Virus record (IMG/VR): IMGVR_UViG_2657245112_000024
DNA length: 8,483 nt
Source: a virus
Lineage: Duplodnaviria > Heunggongvirae > Uroviricota > Caudoviricetes
Strand: one strand, 5' to 3'
Shown here piece by piece: positions 557 to 8,095 of this stretch. Under the pieces are notes generated by a model. The model had not been told where the DNA came from and did no database searches. It saw only the letters and a program-made list of their open reading frames with translations. The translations under genes and the position numbers were made by a program. Every line of letters starts with the position of its first letter. Position 1 is the first letter of the stretch.

Positions 557-976
557 TTACTCCGGTGGGGGATTATCTTTAAGCCTGCCTCTCAAATATT
601 TTTCTACATACTCATCGATTTCTTTTAGCCGGACTTCAAATAGCTCAATCATTCGTTGTTGTTCTGAGCCCGGTAGCTGGTTAAACAACTCAAGAAGTTT
701 TCGTTGGGATTCATTTAACCACAATTCAGAAGATTCCTGTTCTCCAAAGAGGAGCTCAGGAGGAGATATGCCAAGTGCCTTTCCCAATACGACAGCGTCA
801 TGCACTCCAACATTTCTGCTGCCCGCCTCATAGTTACCTATACGCGATTGCGTCCATCCGCAGATTTCAGCAAGTTTTCCTTGAGATAAACCAAGCTTCT
901 GCCTGCGCTCTTTAAGACGCATTGCAATTTTGTCATTGAGCCTACTAGCGGCAATTTTTTCGTTTTCTTTTTCCAT
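557..976 (-). CDS. Prophage repressor, XRE-family HTH (DicA/cI-like, no S24 peptidase domain)
   Basis: 139 aa. N-terminal HTH_XRE signature (RQKLGLSQGKLAEICGWTQSRIGNYEAG) and C-terminal LLELFNQLPGSEQ motif like DicA-type repressors. AAGGA RBS 4 nt before the ATG. Divergent from a Cro-like gene. Confidence 0.85.
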   Translation of the reverse strand: MEKENEKIAASRLNDKIAMRLKERRQKLGLSQGKLAEICGWTQSRIGNYEAGSRNVGVHDAVVLGKALGISPPELLFGEQESSELWLNESQRKLLELFNQLPGSEQQRMIELFEVRLKEIDEYVEKYLRGRLKDNPPPE

Positions 977-1072
977 TGCATCCTTGTATCACGAATCGTG
1001 ATTTACATAAAACACAAAACAGCTTGACCATATAACACAAGATGTGTTTAAAATTGTCATCGGAGGTTTTCA
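977..1072. promoter_or_regulatory. Divergent promoter/operator region of the lysogeny switch
   Basis: 96-bp intergenic region between divergent repressor and cro-like genes. Two perfect 15-bp palindromes: atcacgaatcgtgat (988-1002) and aacacaagatgtgtt (1034-1048). Candidate sigma70 -35 ttgacc (1024-1029) and -10-like tttaaa about 17 bp downstream, overlapping the second palindrome. GGAGG RBS at 1062-1066 for cro. Confidence 0.6.
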
Positions 1073-1315
1073 ATGAACAAAATTTCAACATATCGAAAAC
1101 AGCTTGGGCTGTCTCAAAGACAACTTGCTGTTCAGTTAGGGTGGATACAAAGCCGACTGGCAAATTACGAAGCAAATTTTCGTACCCCTGGACTAGAGGA
1201 GTGCAGAAAAATTGTTTCTACCCTTAATCGGCTTGGCGCTCATTGTGGACTTGACGATGTATTCCCCCCAGACGGTAAGCATAGCGAAAACAGCATAGGA
1301 GCGGTTGATTCATGA
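1073..1315 (+). CDS. Cro/DicC-like HTH transcriptional regulator
   Basis: 80 aa. HTH_XRE signature (RKQLGLSQRQLAVQLGWIQSRLANYEA) parallel to the repressor HTH. GGAGG RBS 6 nt upstream. Divergent from the repressor. Confidence 0.8.
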   Translation: MNKISTYRKQLGLSQRQLAVQLGWIQSRLANYEANFRTPGLEECRKIVSTLNRLGAHCGLDDVFPPDGKHSENSIGAVDS

Positions 1316-1734
1316 AAATCAGGCATGAGCACATCGAATCAGTGTTGTTAGCCCTGGCAGCCGAAAAAGGGCAGGCGTGGGTCGCTAACGCAATTACTGA
1401 AGAATATCTGCGCCAGGGGGGCGGCGAATTGCCCCTTGTACCAGGCAAGGACTGGAACAATCAGCAGAATATCTATCACCGTTGGTTGAAAGGTGAAACG
1501 AAAGCGCAAAGGGAAAAAATTCAGAAACTGATCCCTGCGGTTCTGGCAATTCTTCCGCGCGAGCTGCGTCACCGACTCTGCATCTTCGATACCTTGGAAC
1601 GCCGTGCATTACTGGCGGCGCAGGAAGCGTTGAGTACGGCAATTGATGCGCATGATGATGCAGTCCAGGCCGTTTACCGGAAAGCACATTTCAGCGGTGG
1701 TGGGTCGTCCGGCGATTCTGTCGTAGTGCATTGA
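1312..1734 (+). CDS. ydaT: YdaT-family protein (Rac prophage ydaT-like; reported as a CII-like regulator in related prophages, historically annotated as a putative toxin)
   Basis: 140 aa, matches my recollection of E. coli Rac YdaT (MKI.HEHIESVL.ALAAEKGQAWVANAITEEYLRQGGGELPL...). Start ATG overlaps the cro stop as ATGA at 1312-1315, indicating translational coupling. Confidence 0.7.
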   Translation: MKIRHEHIESVLLALAAEKGQAWVANAITEEYLRQGGGELPLVPGKDWNNQQNIYHRWLKGETKAQREKIQKLIPAVLAILPRELRHRLCIFDTLERRALLAAQEALSTAIDAHDDAVQAVYRKAHFSGGGSSGDSVVVH

Positions 1735-1778
1735 TTGAAATTAATCGTGCCGGATTGTTTTGTTCGGTATCAGTTAAA

Positions 1779-2220
1779 TGTAACGCTGCGAGCGTTACAA
1801 GGTGAAAACAAATGGCTTCAAACTGGATAAAGCTCGAGGTTATTACGCCGGATAAGCCGGAAATATTCAGGCTTGCTGAGATTCTGAATATTGATCCAGA
1901 TGCCGCATTAGGGAAGGTTATTCGCTTCTGGGCATGGGCGGATCAACAAATGATAGACGGTAATGCAGATTGTAACGCTCGCGGCGTTACAAAAAGTGCA
2001 ATAGATCGCATCACTTTTATGGCTGGTTTTGCTGATGCGTTAATTCAGGTTGGATGGCTGGTCGAAAATGACGGTGGGCTTTCTCTACCTAACTTTGAAC
2101 GTCATAACGGGAAAAGCTCTAAAAAACGGGCGGTTACAAACGAGCGAGTTACAAAAATACGCGAACTGAAACGAAAAGGTAACGCTGGCAGCGTTACACA
2201 AATGGATCAAAAAGCGTTAC
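1779..2220. repeat. Iteron-like inverted/direct repeats (putative phage origin, initiator-binding sites)
   Basis: Repeated GTAACGC...GCGTTAC palindromes: tgtaacgctgcgagcgttaca (1779-1799, perfect, 21 bp), tgtaacgc-tcgcg-gcgttaca (1971-1991), gtaacgctg-g-cagcgttac (2179-2197). Additional half-sites GTTACAAA at 2133-2140 and 2149-2156 and agcgttac at 2213-2220. One copy lies just upstream of the initiator gene and the rest inside its 5' half, as for lambda ori within O. Confidence 0.55.
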
Positions 2221-2600
2221 CAGAGGAAGAGAAAGAGGAAGATATAAATACTGATCTCCCCCTAAATCCCCCTCGCCAAAAACGAGCGTCTAAAAAATTT
2301 GTGCCGGAGGCTATTGAGCTGCCCGATTGGTTGCCGGAAACACTCTGGCATGAGTGGGTCCGGTTCAGGCAGGCATTGCGAAAACCGATTCGAACGGAGC
2401 AGGGCGCTAACGGGGCGATACGGGAGCTGGAAAAATTCCGCCAGCAGGGTTTTACACCTGAGCAGGTGATTCGACACAGTATCGCCAATGAATACCAGGG
2501 CCTGTTCGCGCCGAAAGGTGTTCGGCCTGAGACGTTGCTCCGACAGGTTAACACCGTCTCGTTACCGGATAGTGCGATCCCGCCAGGCTTCAGGGGGTAA
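1812..2600 (+). CDS. Phage replication initiation protein (YdaU/DUF1376-like, with a C-terminal DnaT-like segment)
   Basis: 262 aa. Position immediately upstream of a DnaC-like loader. Contains the iteron cluster. C-terminal region (LPDWLPETLWHEWVRFRQALRKPIRTEQG) resembles the DnaT/primosomal C-terminal domain seen in phage initiators. AAGGTGA RBS. Confidence 0.65.
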   Translation: MASNWIKLEVITPDKPEIFRLAEILNIDPDAALGKVIRFWAWADQQMIDGNADCNARGVTKSAIDRITFMAGFADALIQVGWLVENDGGLSLPNFERHNGKSSKKRAVTNERVTKIRELKRKGNAGSVTQMDQKALPEEEKEEDINTDLPLNPPRQKRASKKFVPEAIELPDWLPETLWHEWVRFRQALRKPIRTEQGANGAIRELEKFRQQGFTPEQVIRHSIANEYQGLFAPKGVRPETLLRQVNTVSLPDSAIPPGFRG

Positions 2601-2606
2601 CTGACC

Positions 2607-3353
2607 ATGAAAAATATTGCGGCAGGCGGCGTTCTTGAACGTATCCGAAGACTGGCTCCGCCACATGTAACCGCCCCATTCAGAACGGTAGCGGAGTGGC
2701 ACGAGTGGCAACTTGCTGAAGGCCAGAAACGTAGCGAGGAGATCAACCGCCTGAATCGCCAGTTGCGGGTGGAAAAAATTCTGAATCGCTCAGGCATCCA
2801 GCCGTTGCACCGTAAATGCTCGTTTGCGAATTACCAGGTGCAGAACGACGGTCAGCGATACGCGTTGAGCCAGGCGAAATCTATCGCTGATGAACTGATG
2901 ACCGGATGCACAAATTTCGCGTTTAGCGGAAAACCTGGTACCGGGAAGAACCACTTAGCAGCAGCTATCGGGAATCGCCTGCTGAAAGACGGTCAGACAG
3001 TGATTGTGGTTACCGTGGCTGATGTTATGAGTGCCCTCCACGCCAGCTATGACGATGGGCAGTCAGGCGAAAAATTTTTGCGGGAACTGTGCGAAGTGGA
3101 TCTGCTGGTTCTTGATGAAATTGGCATTCAGCGCGAGACGAAAAACGAGCAGGTGGTACTGCACCAGATTATTGATCGACGGACAGCGTCGATGCGTAGC
3201 GTGGGAATGCTGACAAACCTGAACTATGAGGCCATGAAAACATTGCTCGGCGAGCGGATTATGGATCGCATGACCATGAACGGCGGGCGATGGGTGAATT
3301 TTAACTGGGAGAGCTGGCGTCCGAATGTCGTCCAGCCAGGAATTGCGAAGTAA
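2607..3353 (+). CDS. DnaC/IstB-like replicative helicase loader ATPase
   Basis: 248 aa. Walker [16 protein letters not shown], Walker B LLVLDEIG, and sensor region typical of the DnaC family. Only 6 nt after the initiator stop, suggesting a shared operon. Confidence 0.85.
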
Positions 3354-3375
3354 TTTTTACCGGGAGAAAAATTTA

Positions 3376-4146
3376 ATGGAGACTGTTTTTGACGCACTGA
3401 AAGCAATGGGAAAAGCCACATCCATAGAACTTGCTGCGCGACTTGATATCAGTCGTGAAGAGATACTGAACGAGCTGTGGGAACTGAAAAGAAATGGCGT
3501 CGTTGATAAAACTGGTCACACCTGGTTTCTGGCTGGCGAAGGTGAATCCGGGGTAACCGAAGAGCAGCCAGCACAATCTGAAGTACCGGATGTGCTAACC
3601 GGGGGGGGCGAACAAAAAGTTACCGCTGACATGATGATTGAGTTTATCGGTCAGGAGGGGGCTAAAACGTGTGAGGAACTGGCGAGTAAGTTCGGTGTCA
3701 GCACTCGCAAGGTTGCTTCCACGCTGGCGGTAGTAACCGCAACGGGGCGGCTGGCACGCGTTAATCAGAACGGTAAATTTCGTTACTGCCTGCCGGACGG
3801 TAATTTACCAGCAGAGCCGAAAGTTGTATCGGTAGCGAAAACACCTGGTAAAGGCTTTCCTCAGCCAGCCGGTTTTGCGTTACCAGTACAGGACGCGGCA
3901 ACACAGGAAGAAATTAAAACAGAAACTGTGGCGGACCTTGTGCAGTCACTGCCATCGTTCACTGAAACGCGAGCGAATGGCCTGATTTTACCATCGCTGC
4001 ATATGGCAAACCGTGAACTGCGTCGGGCGAAAAGTCATGTCCAGAAGTGGGAGCGAGTCTGCGCCGCGCTGCGGGAGTTGAACAAGCACCGGGATATTGT
4101 TCGACAGATTTTCGATTCCTCCAGTCGTATTGTGTCGGAAAAGTGA
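3376..4146 (+). CDS. Hypothetical protein with two winged-helix-like segments
   Basis: ATG at 3376 preferred over the track start at 3325 (GGGAGA RBS 9 nt upstream; the 3325 start would overlap the DnaC-like gene). Two internally similar segments resembling wHTH DNA-binding domains ([28 protein letters not shown] and [29 protein letters not shown]). Confidence 0.55.
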
Positions 4147-4161
4147 TTGCCGGAGGCACCT

Positions 4162-4593
4162 ATGGCAAAAGTATTTACACCAGAAGAGCGGGAAAAAATT
4201 AAAGGGCAGGTTGTTGAACTTGTACGTCTGAGCGGTCGCGAGACGTTACGGGCTCTGGAGGCTAAAACCGGTGCATCAAGGTATTACATAAGCACTCTCG
4301 CCAGAGAACTGGTCGCCAGTGGTGATGTTTACAATTCAGGCTACGGATTATTCCTGTCTGAGCAGGCCCGTAAGGACTGGCAAAACGCCCGCAAAAAACT
4401 ATCCAGGGCAAAGGTGAAAAAAACGGTTGTGGTTGATCCTGACCTTATCTGGTCATTACCAGACGGAGAAATACGCCGCTACGACAGGCGCCTGAATATA
4501 ATCTGTCGCGAGTGCCGGAAAAGCGAAGTTATGCAGCGTGTACTGGCATTTTACCAGAGTAATTTCAGGAGGTTGTCTGGTGAGCACGATTAA
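4162..4593 (+). CDS. Hypothetical protein with N-terminal HTH-like segment
   Basis: ATG at 4162 with GGAGG 5 nt upstream (the track start at 4147 is TTG). Follows the previous gene by 15 nt. HTH-like stretch ETLRALEAKTGASRYYISTLARELVASG. No recognisable catalytic motif. Confidence 0.5.
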   Translation: MAKVFTPEEREKIKGQVVELVRLSGRETLRALEAKTGASRYYISTLARELVASGDVYNSGYGLFLSEQARKDWQNARKKLSRAKVKKTVVVDPDLIWSLPDGEIRRYDRRLNIICRECRKSEVMQRVLAFYQSNFRRLSGEHD

Positions 4594-4618
4594 CTACTAG
4601 GGGGGATAACAATAAAAT

Positions 4619-4638
4619 AAAGCCTCCTAGGAGGCTTT
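4619..4638. terminator. Palindromic hairpin between convergent genes (putative bidirectional terminator)
   Basis: Perfect 20-bp palindrome aaagcctcctaggaggcttt between the plus-strand gene ending at 4593 and the minus-strand methyltransferase whose TAG stop (4627-4629) lies inside it. T-rich flanks on both strands. Confidence 0.5.
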
Positions 4639-5667
4639 GATTATATTAAGCAAATGTTTTCCAATCGTTTCAGACATCTTCGGAGGGACCGCATTTCCTA
4701 TTTGACGAGCCCGAGATTGCAAAGAACCAATAAATTTATAATCCAAAGGAAATGTTTGTAGACACGCTGCTTCACGAACAGATATTGCTCGATTTTGTGT
4801 TGGATGTCCAAAACGTCCATTTGAATAGCTAATACAACGAGTTGTTAGTCCGCTGGCTGGTTTGTCCCAACTCAAACGTCCATATACGTCTGTATGCCCT
4901 TTATGGTTACGATGGCATTCTAAAATCAATTCATCTGGCCAAAATTCTCGACTTCCACCTTCAGGAGTGCATTTTATTCTACGTAAATTAAGCTCTGATA
5001 AGCGTGCAGCTTCATGATCAGGAATACTATTATGCTTTTCTCCTGCTTCTATCTTCGGTAAATTAGCGATCCAGTCCTTTACTGTTGAATAGGGAGTATT
5101 TCCAACCCCATGTGTAGGAGAAGGCAATGCGACATAAAAATCCTTGGATGCAATGAGCACTAATCTTTCTCGCGTCTGTGGTACACCGTACCACGCAGCT
5201 GGCATTACTTTATAATCTACACTATATCCCTTTGATGAAAGCATTTCTAAAAACATCATGAATGTTCCTTCATTTTTGTTAAACTTTTGCATTCCTGGCA
5301 CGTTTTCAACAAAAATAAAATCAGGCATATAATGCTCTACAAAACGACTGAATTCCTTTAATAGATCTAATCGTGGATCATCATTTTTTTTATTTGAGTT
5401 TTGCTTAGAGTACGGTTGACAAGGCGCACATCCTGAAAAAAGAATGTAATCATTACGATGTTTTTTTACTAACTTGTTTATGGCATTGTTGTCGATTAAC
5501 CTAATGTCCGAGTTAATAAAAGCAGCTTGCGGGAAATTTGCACGAAATGAACTGGCTGCATCAACGTCGAAATCGAGGCCAAAAACAATATCCATTCCAG
5601 CTTGATGGAAACCTTGGCTGGTTCCACCACAACCGGAAAAGAAGTCAAACACTTTGATTTTTTTCAT
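4627..5667 (-). CDS. DNA (cytosine-5)-methyltransferase
   Basis: Complete C5-MTase motif set: I FDFFSGCGG (FxGxGG), IV GCAPCQPYS (PCQ), VI FVENVPG (ENV), VIII QTRERL, IX REAACLQTFPLDY, X GNAVPP. ATG at 5667 preferred (GAGGGA RBS 4 nt upstream). The track extends to a GTG at 5691 that overlaps the upstream gene's TAG stop by 1 nt. Confidence 0.9.
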   Translation of the reverse strand: MKKIKVFDFFSGCGGTSQGFHQAGMDIVFGLDFDVDAASSFRANFPQAAFINSDIRLIDNNAINKLVKKHRNDYILFSGCAPCQPYSKQNSNKKNDDPRLDLLKEFSRFVEHYMPDFIFVENVPGMQKFNKNEGTFMMFLEMLSSKGYSVDYKVMPAAWYGVPQTRERLVLIASKDFYVALPSPTHGVGNTPYSTVKDWIANLPKIEAGEKHNSIPDHEAARLSELNLRRIKCTPEGGSREFWPDELILECHRNHKGHTDVYGRLSWDKPASGLTTRCISYSNGRFGHPTQNRAISVREAACLQTFPLDYKFIGSLQSRARQIGNAVPPKMSETIGKHLLNIIKAS

Positions 5668-5690
5668 TTTTCCCTCTGCATCCAGAATCA

Positions 5691-7520
5691 CTACCTAATG
5701 ATACCACGGTCAAGAGCCTGAGTAATTATTTTTCTTATTTTTATAAATTCAGGCAATTCATTTTTAAGTCTTGCGGTCATCATTTTTTGGAGGCAAAAAA
5801 TTTCCTCTGCATTTACTTCTTCTTTATCATACAGGTGTTGCGCTAATAATCTTATTTGATTCTTATACAGCTCTGGATCATTAGAACTCCAGGTCTGTGA
5901 ATCAATTATTTCTTTTTCACTTGGCGTAATTGCCTTTTCAATGAGTAATTGTTCGGGAGTATCAAATGGTAAATACTGCACTTTATTGAATGCATACTCA
6001 AGCACTTGCCTTTTGAGTCTATTAGATTCTTGTTCATTTTTTTTGCCATTACTACCACTGGCATTGATAATTAACTCGCAACCATAATATTTGCACATTG
6101 TATTAACTAAATCAGCATCAGCAATTTCACTAATTCTTACTGGTTTTATTTTTTTGTTTTTATCACCATCAAGTAAAAACAAAATATCATTGCGTTCTAC
6201 CACAGCGTAACTGGGAAGATGCTTGCTTAAAATTGTCTCCGAACCACCTGGTATATAACTTACACTAAATGATAAACTTAATCTTTCATAATTTTTAATC
6301 GCTTTATCTATAATTGCTTTAGCTAATTTATCTTCTACAATTATTGTTTTCTTGTTAATATCATGCCCTAGCTCTATAAAAGCTTCATCCGGTGCTATAT
6401 TTTGAACTATTTTAGCTGTTTCACTCTCTTCATCAAAAACAAATAATTTAATAGCATCTTTGGGAAGAGTGTTCACAATAACAGGAGAATGGGTTGATAT
6501 TACCACTTGATGTTTTTTCTGCTCAACAATAGAGTACAGAACATCCATCATCCTTTTCTGTGCACCAGGGTGAAGTGAAACTTCTGGTTCGTCAAGAAGA
6601 ATTAATGAATTAGGTTTGGCCGAATAAATATTGAGTATTAGTGAAACTATTGCAAATTCACCACTTCCAGCAAAAGCTTCTGTATAGTTCAACTTATCAG
6701 TTGAAAGTAAAGCGGTTCCTCCTCTGGTTCCAAATAACCGATGCTCAAGAAATTTAATGACTTTATATTTTTTTCCTAATATAAATGAGACGTGCTCAAC
6801 TAGTTCTGGCGCCAAGGTTATATTTTTAACAATGGTTTCCGTCCCCCAAAGTCTTAAATTACTTAGCTTTTCATCAAAAGCTTTCTTTATATATTTAGAT
6901 TTGCTTCTGATATAGTCTTGCTTTGTAATTAATACACCACTCTTCTTCTTTCTTAATTTAAAATCAGAGTGATACATACATCTATCAAATGCACTTATTT
7001 CCGATCTGAAATCTAGGAAAATCAATCCCTTCTTGATTTTTTTCCATCTGGTTGCATTACTATTAGCACCCAGATCATCCGAAATACTCTCCATGTTATC
7101 ACCAACAGATGGTCGACTTGTTTCCCAATAATCGATTGTTTTCTTGGTAGCATTGATACGCGCTTGGAGTATTTCAACTAAACGGCCATCAGCATTTTTA
7201 TATCCATATATATATCTAGGCTTAAGAGAACTGCCATCAGCAAGTTTTAGGTCAGGAAACTCATCTGTTTCAGTTGTGAACCAATAACGAGTTATATTTT
7301 TACCATGTGGGCAACCAAATAGCGCTTTGATAACAGAACTTTTATTAGTTCCATTTTTTCCTACTAAAGCCGTTATAGGGAACTGAAAATCGATCCTTGC
7401 ATTCTGCTCTATATTTTTAAAGTATGGAAAACGGATATGTTGTATGAATGGTTCAAATTCACCGTTTTTTAACGCGCACTGGAGTGTTCGAATTTTGCTC
7501 TTGTATGCGGAAGTGCTCAT
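5691..7520 (-). CDS. OLD-family-like ABC ATPase with C-terminal Toprim-like nuclease signature
   Basis: 609 aa. N-terminal P-loop LVGKNGTNKSSV (atypical, N where the conserved G precedes K), Walker B/D-loop LILLDEPEVSLHP, H-loop VVISTHSP. C-terminal candidate Toprim motifs: conserved glutamate in TIIVEDKLAKAII and DxD in ILFLLDGDKNK. Very AT-rich. Immediately upstream of the C5-MTase in the same orientation. Confidence 0.75.
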   Translation of the reverse strand: MSTSAYKSKIRTLQCALKNGEFEPFIQHIRFPYFKNIEQNARIDFQFPITALVGKNGTNKSSVIKALFGCPHGKNITRYWFTTETDEFPDLKLADGSSLKPRYIYGYKNADGRLVEILQARINATKKTIDYWETSRPSVGDNMESISDDLGANSNATRWKKIKKGLIFLDFRSEISAFDRCMYHSDFKLRKKKSGVLITKQDYIRSKSKYIKKAFDEKLSNLRLWGTETIVKNITLAPELVEHVSFILGKKYKVIKFLEHRLFGTRGGTALLSTDKLNYTEAFAGSGEFAIVSLILNIYSAKPNSLILLDEPEVSLHPGAQKRMMDVLYSIVEQKKHQVVISTHSPVIVNTLPKDAIKLFVFDEESETAKIVQNIAPDEAFIELGHDINKKTIIVEDKLAKAIIDKAIKNYERLSLSFSVSYIPGGSETILSKHLPSYAVVERNDILFLLDGDKNKKIKPVRISEIADADLVNTMCKYYGCELIINASGSNGKKNEQESNRLKRQVLEYAFNKVQYLPFDTPEQLLIEKAITPSEKEIIDSQTWSSNDPELYKNQIRLLAQHLYDKEEVNAEEIFCLQKMMTARLKNELPEFIKIRKIITQALDRGIIR

Positions 7521-7668
7521 TGTTTACTAAAGTCCATAATAGGCTATTAACAGGTTGAGGATGACATGATAGCGATTTTTAATGCAGATAAAAGAGGTTT
7601 GTTGGTTAGCACACAACAGAAAAAGTGACCTTACCGCTTGAACGAAAGGTAAGGGTAAGTAGGCTGTG

Positions 7669-7821
7669 ATGCAGCAAAAGGCGATGTTAATCGCCCTGAT
7701 CGTCATCTGTTTAACCGTCGTTGTGACGGCACTGGTAACGAGGAAAGACATCTGCGAGGTACGAATCCGAACCGGCCAGACGGAGGTCGCTGTCTTCACA
7801 GCTTACGAACCTGAGGAGTAA
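7669..7821 (+). CDS. hok: Hok/Gef-family type I toxin (HokD/RelF-like small membrane peptide)
   Basis: 50 aa: MQQKAMLIALIVICLTVVVTALVTRKDICEVRIRTGQTEVAVFTAYEPEE. Single transmembrane helix plus the conserved C-terminal periplasmic region of Hok proteins. Near-identical to my recollection of E. coli HokD/RelF. Not in the ORF track because it is short. Confidence 0.85.
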   Translation: MQQKAMLIALIVICLTVVVTALVTRKDICEVRIRTGQTEVAVFTAYEPEE

Positions 7822-7889
7822 GAGACCCGGCCGAGGAGAAATCCCCCGCCACCTCTGATGTGTCAGGCATCCTCAACGCACCCGTACTT

Positions 7890-7912
7890 AGCCGCTTCGG
7901 CGGGTTTTTTGT
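7890..7912 (+). terminator. Rho-independent terminator at the 3' end of the hok transcript
   Basis: Hairpin agccgc-ttcg-gcggg (7890-7904) followed by T6 (7905-7910), about 70 nt after the hok stop. Hok mRNAs characteristically end in a structured 3' region. Confidence 0.55.
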
Positions 7913-8095
7913 TGCGCGCTGAATACGCAGGGTGAAAAATAACCATATATTTGATTATATACACAACAAAAAATAAAAGTCATTGTACCTGCACATTAAA
8001 TAATCAAATATACGGCGTGAAATAAATATTTTTCAGATTAATATTTTTGTCTCTATGTGGATATAACCGTTTGTACTTATAAACTCGGAGGCATC

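Follow-up and report, generated by a model that had tools for sequence, protein, structure and literature searches.

The window analyzed here is a stretch of 8,483 nucleotides from a virus of the class Caudoviricetes (IMG/VR record IMGVR_UViG_2657245112_000024). The gene of interest within it encodes a protein of 609 residues that combines an ABC (ATP-binding cassette) ATPase with a Toprim-like nuclease domain, and the gene is followed on the same strand by one for a C5 DNA cytosine methyltransferase. The phosphate-binding loop (P-loop, or Walker A motif) of the protein carries Asn59 at its position 6, where Gly is usual. Sequence comparisons identify this residue as a family trait, conserved across a deep clade, and not as a lesion. 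Family members with Asn or Gly at this position are referred to below as N-type and G-type, respectively. The features of the two genes are the following:

5691..7520, minus strand: open reading frame (ORF) of 609 amino acids, OLD-like ABC-ATPase-Toprim protein (RefSeq WP_000107695.1, 'ATP-dependent nuclease')
7338..7361, minus strand: Walker A motif or P-loop, G54-K-N-G-T-N59-K60-S61, from the translation and aligned to the P-loops of TsOLD, PtuA and AriA
7344..7346, minus strand: codon AAT of Asn59, Walker A position 6, usually Gly
6657..6671, minus strand: ABC signature A284-G-S-G-E288, with G285, G287 and E288 invariant in N-type and G-type proteins
6582..6605, minus strand: Walker B motif LILLDEPE, with D310 and E311 100% conserved in both types, aligned to TsOLD, PtuA and AriA
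6486..6494, minus strand: H-loop T343-H344-S345, with H344 100% conserved
6111..6359, minus strand: Toprim-like domain, approximately residues 388-470, with E396-D397 and D451-G-D453, from invariant residues and model topology
4627..5667, minus strand: C5 DNA cytosine methyltransferase of 346 amino acids, a RefSeq coding sequence matched over its full length by Pfam DNA_methylase (5e-61)

The N-terminus of the 609-residue protein, which contains the Walker A motif, reads FPITALVGKNGTNKSSVIKALFG. Its P-loop, GKNGTNKS, does not match the consensus GxxGxGK[ST], since position 6 is Asn, but the Lys-Ser pair is kept; it is a variant of the Walker A motif and not an absence of the motif. A sequence-only reading of this DNA had already pointed to an Asn in place of the Gly ahead of the catalytic Lys, which the translation of 7338-7361 confirms. 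The interval given for it, 7350-7400, does overlap the motif (it covers residues 41-57) but ends 4 nucleotides before the Asn codon and excludes the Lys-Ser pair. The Walker B motif (LLDEPE) and the H-loop (THS), described there as intact, were located at 6582-6605 and 6486-6494. The protein has an ABC head fold and displays the signature motif, the Walker B Asp-Glu pair and the H-loop His expected of an ABC head.

In phmmer and profile alignments with PDB sequences, N59 stands opposite the position-6 Gly of TsOLD (VGPNGAGKTT), PtuA (APNGAGKTT) and AriA (GKNGAGKST). The AlphaFold2 model of the protein, with a mean predicted local distance difference test score (pLDDT) of 88.4, contains a strand at residues 49-54, a loop at residues 55-59 and a helix at residues 60-68, N59 being the last residue of the loop. 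The modeled order of strand, P-loop and helix around N59 is canonical, and by alignment and model alike N59 occupies the true position 6 of the P-loop.

Analysis of position 6 across the family reveals how widespread this variant is. The 120 closest clusters at 90% identity comprise 114 full-length homologues, with identities down to 37%, all of which (114/114) have Asn at position 6 within the motif Gx-N-G-[TS]-N-K-[ST]. A profile search over 1.84 billion cluster representatives yielded 576 representatives at E<1e-30. Among the best 150 of these, 143 were new (50% clusters), two of them being N-terminally truncated and without a recognizable P-loop; position 6 in the 141 others is N in 85, G in 49, S in 5, H in 1 and C in 1. 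The homologues, the profile matches and 80 genomic loci from GTDB species genomes were pooled and thinned to 291 non-redundant sequences, in which the corresponding numbers are N 190, G 94, S 5, H 1 and C 1. Of the 197 sequences without Gly at this position, 190 have Asn and none has Asp. One Ser-type member is located in a prophage beside a cI-like repressor gene.

Gly, on the other hand, is found at position 6 in a 30%-identical homologue from a Clostridium plasmid (GKNGTGKS), in an IncI1 IbfA-like protein (GSNGTGKS), in the experimentally tested HEC-04 (GPNGSGKS) and in 118 of 118 HEC-04-family proteins (clusters); a tblastn search of plasmids returned distant relatives only, two of which served as Gly-type outgroups. 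The sequence-only reading had proposed that the substitution might set the protein apart from canonical OLD or GajA ATPases as part of a divergent subfamily, and the alignments support this proposal. The Asn is clade-specific, being the majority state in its own family (190/291) and occurring in 0/118 proteins of the HEC-04 family, and Gly is the residue in OLD, PtuA, AriA, IbfA-like and HEC-04 sequences. The P-loop lies where it had been read, and the canonical members outside the family have Gly.

A neighbor-joining tree of the 291 sequences, built without the position-6 column, displays approximately 12 changes of state at this position. Its main split separates 187 N-type, 23 G-type and 7 other sequences from 71 G-type and 3 N-type sequences, with a G subclade of 21 leaves nested within the N side and three independent origins of Asn inside the G clade. 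Rooting with a single distant IbfA-like outgroup placed the root inside the N group, which is probably due to long-branch attraction. In the related loci, Asn is encoded by AAC or AAT and Gly by GGN, and because of these codons an exchange between the two residues takes two substitutions. The rare Ser states (AGY) are plausible intermediates between the Asn and Gly codons, and the two-step barrier may contribute to keeping a lineage in the state it has.

The remainder of the catalytic apparatus is conserved irrespective of the residue at position 6. In N-type (n=190) and G-type (n=93) proteins, which have an overall identity of approximately 35-40%, K60, S/T61, G285, G287, E288, D310, E311 and H344 of the ATPase are 100% conserved, as are E396, D397, D451 and D453 of the Toprim domain. 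Invariance of the ATPase and Toprim catalytic residues at this level of identity indicates purifying selection on a working ATPase-nuclease and no decayed site. From sequence conservation, the ATP site of the N-type protein is probably functional; with regard to the altered nucleotide binding or hydrolysis that the sequence-only reading had also proposed, the invariance of the other catalytic residues in N-type proteins argues against a loss of function and leaves room for kinetic tuning. The strongest differences between N-type and G-type proteins fall in the columns E23-P24, T58, R/K65, H184, I255, T269 and F289. Of these, E23-P24 is close to invariant among N-type proteins but varies among G-type ones, and F289, right behind the AGSGE signature, covaries with the N state.

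As in the OLD family, an ABC ATPase is fused here to a C-terminal Toprim domain with a Glu and a DxD motif. In the AlphaFold2 model the Toprim region has the topology beta-alpha-beta-alpha-beta, the Glu following the strand of residues 391-395 and the DxD motif the strand of residues 446-450. Foldseek gives full-length alignments to TsOLD (the best, 1.3e-12) and to GajA (5e-12), and the model assigns the protein an OLD/GajA-like fold, in which the Toprim domain comes after the ABC ATPase. At the sequence level, Pfam matches AAA_15, AAA_21 and SMC_N, and neither Pfam Toprim nor OLD-like_TOPRIM matches the protein at E<0.01. The best PADLOC match is HEC-04 (6.6e-35, positions 160-383 of 494 of the hidden Markov model), and the PADLOC model of the retron type I-B ATPase-Toprim protein (ATPase-Toprim_I-B) matches residues 41-464 at 8e-27; all NCBIfam equivalog scores are far under their cut-offs. 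PHROG 3940, of unknown function, spans residues 23-555. The closest solved sequence match is TsOLD (3e-12, ATPase motifs only), and no solved structure of a close relative was present among the PDB sequences searched. The protein is nearer to HEC-04 and to the retron-Eco8 type than to GajA.

The second gene of the cassette starts 23 nucleotides past the stop codon of the nuclease gene, on the same strand, and its ATG at 5667 is preceded by a GAGGG Shine-Dalgarno sequence. The encoded methyltransferase contains motifs FSGCGG, PCQ, ENV, QTRER and GNAV (I, IV, VI, VIII and X). The order of the genes was scored in 82 loci: the window, the Clostridium plasmid locus (L002) and 80 related loci, which come from at least 8 phyla (Pseudomonadota, Bacteroidota, Actinomycetota, Bacillota, Planctomycetota, Patescibacteria, Nitrospirota, Myxococcota and others). 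A C5 methyltransferase gene is directly adjacent to the nuclease gene in 47 of the 82 loci, and in at least 16 others one or two conserved genes separate the pair. The arrangements are the following:

Nuclease, then methyltransferase: 30 loci
Methyltransferase, then nuclease: 15 loci
Nuclease and methyltransferase adjacent, convergent: 2 loci
Methyltransferase, R.HpaII (PF09561), nuclease: 7 loci (L036, L038, L041, L046, L048, L053, L055; at ~4900-6000 in each)
Methyltransferase, GHKL ATPase (HATPase_c_3 and Hypoth_Ymh), nuclease: 5 loci (L013, L025, L026, L028, L043)
Methyltransferase, HEF_HK, Response_reg_2, nuclease: 4 loci (L056-L058, L072)

All but one of the 16 loci with one or more genes between methyltransferase and nuclease have a Gly-type P-loop, and Vsr genes occur in 14 loci. 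A mirror-tree comparison of ATPase and methyltransferase distances gave r = 0.49 overall and r = 0.62 for adjacent pairs (Mantel p <= 0.001). An ORF-level search left at most 15 of the 82 loci, several of them on short or incomplete contigs, without a methyltransferase within ~6 kb; the four of these that were annotated by Pfam sit among other defense or mobile-element genes. One member without a methyltransferase neighbor, N-type (L017, 7796-9952, minus strand), is found beside UvrD-like helicase and GmrSD genes in a Gabija-like arrangement, and this is the sole annotated related locus with a UvrD-like gene beside the nuclease gene. The protein of the window is a member of a large, uncharacterized OLD-like family that is usually encoded beside a C5 cytosine methyltransferase.

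An intact, co-oriented methyltransferase gene adjacent to a nuclease gene, in a pairing conserved across phyla, is the arrangement of a type II-like restriction-modification (R-M) system. We rate an R-M logic, in which the nuclease would attack DNA lacking the cognate 5-methylcytosine (m5C) mark, slightly above a guard logic; the R-M logic is favored by the recurrence of a two-gene cassette that encodes no other nuclease. Counter-indications are the loci without a nearby methyltransferase (at most 15 of 82) and the seven loci that already possess R.HpaII. According to the guard logic, the nuclease may be a second-line or abortive effector attached to methylation systems; this is favored by the same R.HpaII-encoding and methyltransferase-less loci, by HEC-04 acting alone and by reports of tRNA cutting, P2 Old and PARIS having been reported to cut tRNA.

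Published OLD proteins are divided into a lone gene (Class 1), GajA with GajB (Class 2), retron-linked proteins (Class 3) and PARIS (Class 4) (PMC10568477), and the methyltransferase context is absent from all four classes. Literature searches returned nothing relevant on an Asn-type Walker A motif or on methyltransferase-linked OLD nucleases, and the methyltransferase-linked nuclease family is not described in two papers from the Aravind group, on MORCs in R-M systems and on Dnd.

The closest functional comparison is HEC-04, a single-gene ABC ATPase-TOPRIM defense protein embedded in Hma systems (helicase, methylase, ATPase), for which the mutants K62A (the Walker A Lys) and E319A/D375A/D377A (the counterparts of the Toprim Glu and DxD residues) lose defense (Payne et al., bioRxiv 10.1101/2024.01.29.577857). 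IbfA, the R64/pUA1135 ATPase-TOPRIM type, is its homologue (PMC12111858). Both resemble the present protein in that a single polypeptide carries an ABC ATPase and, behind it, a Toprim domain, and in the spacing of E...DxD, and the P-loop flanks of HEC-04 are near-identical (FPVTALVGPNGSGKSSVL versus FPITALVGKNGTNKSSVI), Asn apart. However, identity to HEC-04 is 28% over residues 235-418 (190 residues) plus the P-loop segment, HEC-04 has 490 residues instead of 609 and its model is matched over part of its length; moreover, HEC-04 acts as a single gene, whereas the family of the window's protein is usually paired with a C5 methyltransferase.

Class 1 proteins (P2 Old, T. scotoductus OLD with PDB entry 6P74, V. 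cholerae OLD) share the N-terminal ABC ATPase and the C-terminal Toprim domain, and P2 Old is likewise prophage-borne. They differ by an identity of only ~13-15%, by the Walker A motif (GPNGAGKT in TsOLD), by the Pfam OLD-like Toprim family, which is unmatched here, and by their definition as lone genes, the present family being methyltransferase-linked. GajA aligns over its full length in Foldseek and the PADLOC GajA models match Walker B and the H-loop, but its sequence match extends over ~70 residues only. A Gabija GajA was ruled out, the window containing no gene for GajB or a UvrD-like helicase and the neighbors being the methyltransferase gene and hokD. A retron-Eco8 effector (type I-B, Class 3) was ruled out as well, in view of the absence of a reverse transcriptase ORF or retron non-coding RNA adjoining the gene; with NCBIfam retron_eff_Eco8 the protein scores 29.6 bits, the cut-off being 250.

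PARIS and PrrC-EcoprrI may be regarded as analogues, in that a nuclease is joined to an ABC-type ATPase in a context of restriction or anti-restriction. AriA gives a sequence match of 4e-9, and PADLOC AriA models match the ATPase part (2e-22). PARIS consists of two proteins, AriA and AriB, with a Toprim domain of the DUF4435 type, whereas the two activities are fused here, as in rare PARIS variants, and the methyltransferase context differs; no DUF4435 match was found in the Pfam scan of the protein. PrrC, which sits inside a type I R-M locus, differs by its anticodon-nuclease domain. A possible analogy to it is offered by the seven related loci in which the nuclease gene directly follows a complete HpaII-type pair of methyltransferase and restriction enzyme.

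The cassette is located in a Rac-like prophage, where it is flanked by hokD at one end and by replication and DUF977 genes at the opposite end. Its GC content (4501-7500) is 31-41%, compared with 45-55% in the flanks, which is consistent with a horizontally acquired moron. A megablast search of the phage collection with the cassette gave no match, and the cassette was matched only as prophage in bacterial chromosomes. The neighboring features are as follows:

4618..4639, both strands: palindromic hairpin resembling a terminator, closing the cassette on its 3' side, between the convergent DUF977 and methyltransferase genes, from a consensus scan only
7666-7821, plus strand: hokD, a gene for a type I toxin, located directly upstream of the nuclease gene in divergent orientation
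7860-7915: GC-rich hairpin and T-run, GCCGCTTCGGCGGGTTTTTT, behind hokD
557-4593: Rac-like immunity/replication module, with a cI-like helix-turn-helix repressor gene (557-976, minus strand), YdaS-like, YdaT-like and O-like genes, a DnaC/IstB-like ATPase gene (2607-3353, canonical GKPGTGKN P-loop), and DUF1627 and DUF977 genes

An Rfam scan of the window gave no match, and no Sok-type RNA was found at the gathering score. A second cassette of N-type nuclease and methyltransferase, 39% identical to that of the window (L084-L086, 4001-6835), is found in lambdoid prophages of E. coli, flanked by the antiterminator Q gene and the holin/lysis genes; since it is listed in 520 index blocks, it is much commoner than the window's cassette.

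Taken together, we consider it likely, from the aligned sequences, that N59 is a functional, lineage-defining replacement of position 6 in an intact ABC head fused to a Toprim nuclease. Of all residues apart from Gly, Asn is the one most prone to adopt the alpha-L conformation, and it caps helix N-termini well; Asp is similar in both respects but would be expected to repel the phosphate. This argument for Asn over Asp agrees with the counts (190/197 non-Gly states versus none), and Asn is the most plausible non-Gly replacement at position 6. A large P-loop family with a non-Gly residue at this position and an active ATPase does exist, the MCM helicases with Walker A GDPxx[AS]KS, although these are AAA+ ATPases with Ala or Ser, whereas the present protein is of the ABC type with Asn. 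A structural survey of P-loop nucleoside triphosphatases (NTPases) published in 2025 found position 6 to be exclusively Gly, in a left-handed conformation (PMC11959459). Position 6 would be the alpha-L residue that opens the P-loop helix and whose backbone NH binds phosphate. Asn would best tolerate this geometry, together with helix N-capping, without bringing in a negative charge, and because of this tolerance the loop could still bind and hydrolyze ATP, probably with a somewhat changed affinity or rate. The altered position 6 would then have become entrenched, a reversion to Gly requiring two nucleotide changes. By analogy with HEC-04, P2 Old, VcOLD (in which the Walker A Lys and the Toprim acidic residues are needed for defense) and GajA, ATP binding and engagement of the heads would license the Toprim nuclease. 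The linked methyltransferase would either protect host DNA, as in R-M, or belong to a methylation system backed up by the nuclease.

Several points weigh against a functional replacement. A residue other than Gly at position 6 is usually damaging, Ras G15A for instance lowering nucleotide affinity, and the ATP site may be strongly weakened. The argument for ATP binding and hydrolysis by N-type members is drawn from conservation, and that for the alpha-L geometry of N59 from PMC11959459 and general knowledge. The covarying columns may reflect compensation and a genuine change in the working of the site, or shared ancestry alone. Finally, with the neighbor-joining root on one outgroup inside the N group, the change at position 6 may have gone from Gly to Asn or from Asn to Gly.

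A broader joint reading may be put forward tentatively. The methyltransferase-linked ATPase-Toprim proteins might constitute a fifth, hitherto unrecognized OLD class, serving m5C methylation systems as an ATP-dependent restriction or guard component and disseminated by prophages and islands in at least 8 phyla; the Asn P-loop would be an adaptive, co-evolved alteration of the way in which the engaged dimer holds ATP. Taken by itself, an adaptive kinetic switch appears unlikely. According to it, Asn would contact the gamma-phosphate, the attacking water or the signature region of the partner in the ATP-sandwich dimer, thereby slowing hydrolysis or stabilizing the engaged state, and would have been selected together with the changes at F289, E23-P24, R/K65 and H184, suiting the nuclease to a methyltransferase-coupled role. 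Indeed, the covarying F289 lies directly behind the SGE signature, which faces the partner P-loop in engaged ABC dimers, the covarying T58 and R/K65 flank the P-loop, and Asn recurs independently on the tree. The N type is also enriched in the simple cassette of nuclease followed by methyltransferase, with methyltransferases at least 52% identical to that of the window. Nevertheless, the covariation is confounded by phylogeny, mapping mostly to one main split, and G-type proteins occur in the same two-gene layout, in 12 of the 30 loci with a downstream and 10 of the 15 with an upstream methyltransferase gene.

It is improbable that the site is degenerate, that is, that the change from Gly to Asn disables or severely weakens nucleotide binding, the ABC head being a structural or regulatory pseudo-ATPase and the Toprim domain acting without ATP turnover. 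Such a view would fit the exclusive occurrence of Gly at position 6 in the P-loop NTPase structures surveyed (PMC11959459) and the negligible effect of ATP on cleavage by TsOLD noted in a review (PMC10568477). It is opposed by the complete conservation of the Walker A Lys and Ser/Thr, the signature, the Walker B Asp-Glu and the H-loop His in 190 N-type sequences, and by the identical architecture and gene neighborhoods of N-type and G-type proteins. A one-off mutation, a sequencing or assembly error, a pseudogene or a misplaced P-loop, in favor of which nothing was found, is excluded by the intact ORF of 609 residues, by cassette DNA identical in 32 of 5,426 complete E. coli genomes, by the Asn in all 114 homologues and by the P-loop alignments.

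Position 6 of the Walker A motif is regarded as an obligatory Gly, and a clade of ~190 members with Asn in its place and the other catalytic residues kept constitutes a natural experiment, which shows what the Gly is for and suggests Asn as the main tolerated alternative. If the broader joint reading, with its adaptive change of the P-loop, holds true, the N-type proteins would be the first natural ABC-ATPase clade that dispenses with the position-6 Gly. If the nuclease is gated by methylation, the cassette would represent an ATP-dependent m5C restriction system on common E. coli prophages; a role as guard of methylation systems would instead extend the logic of PrrC and PARIS.

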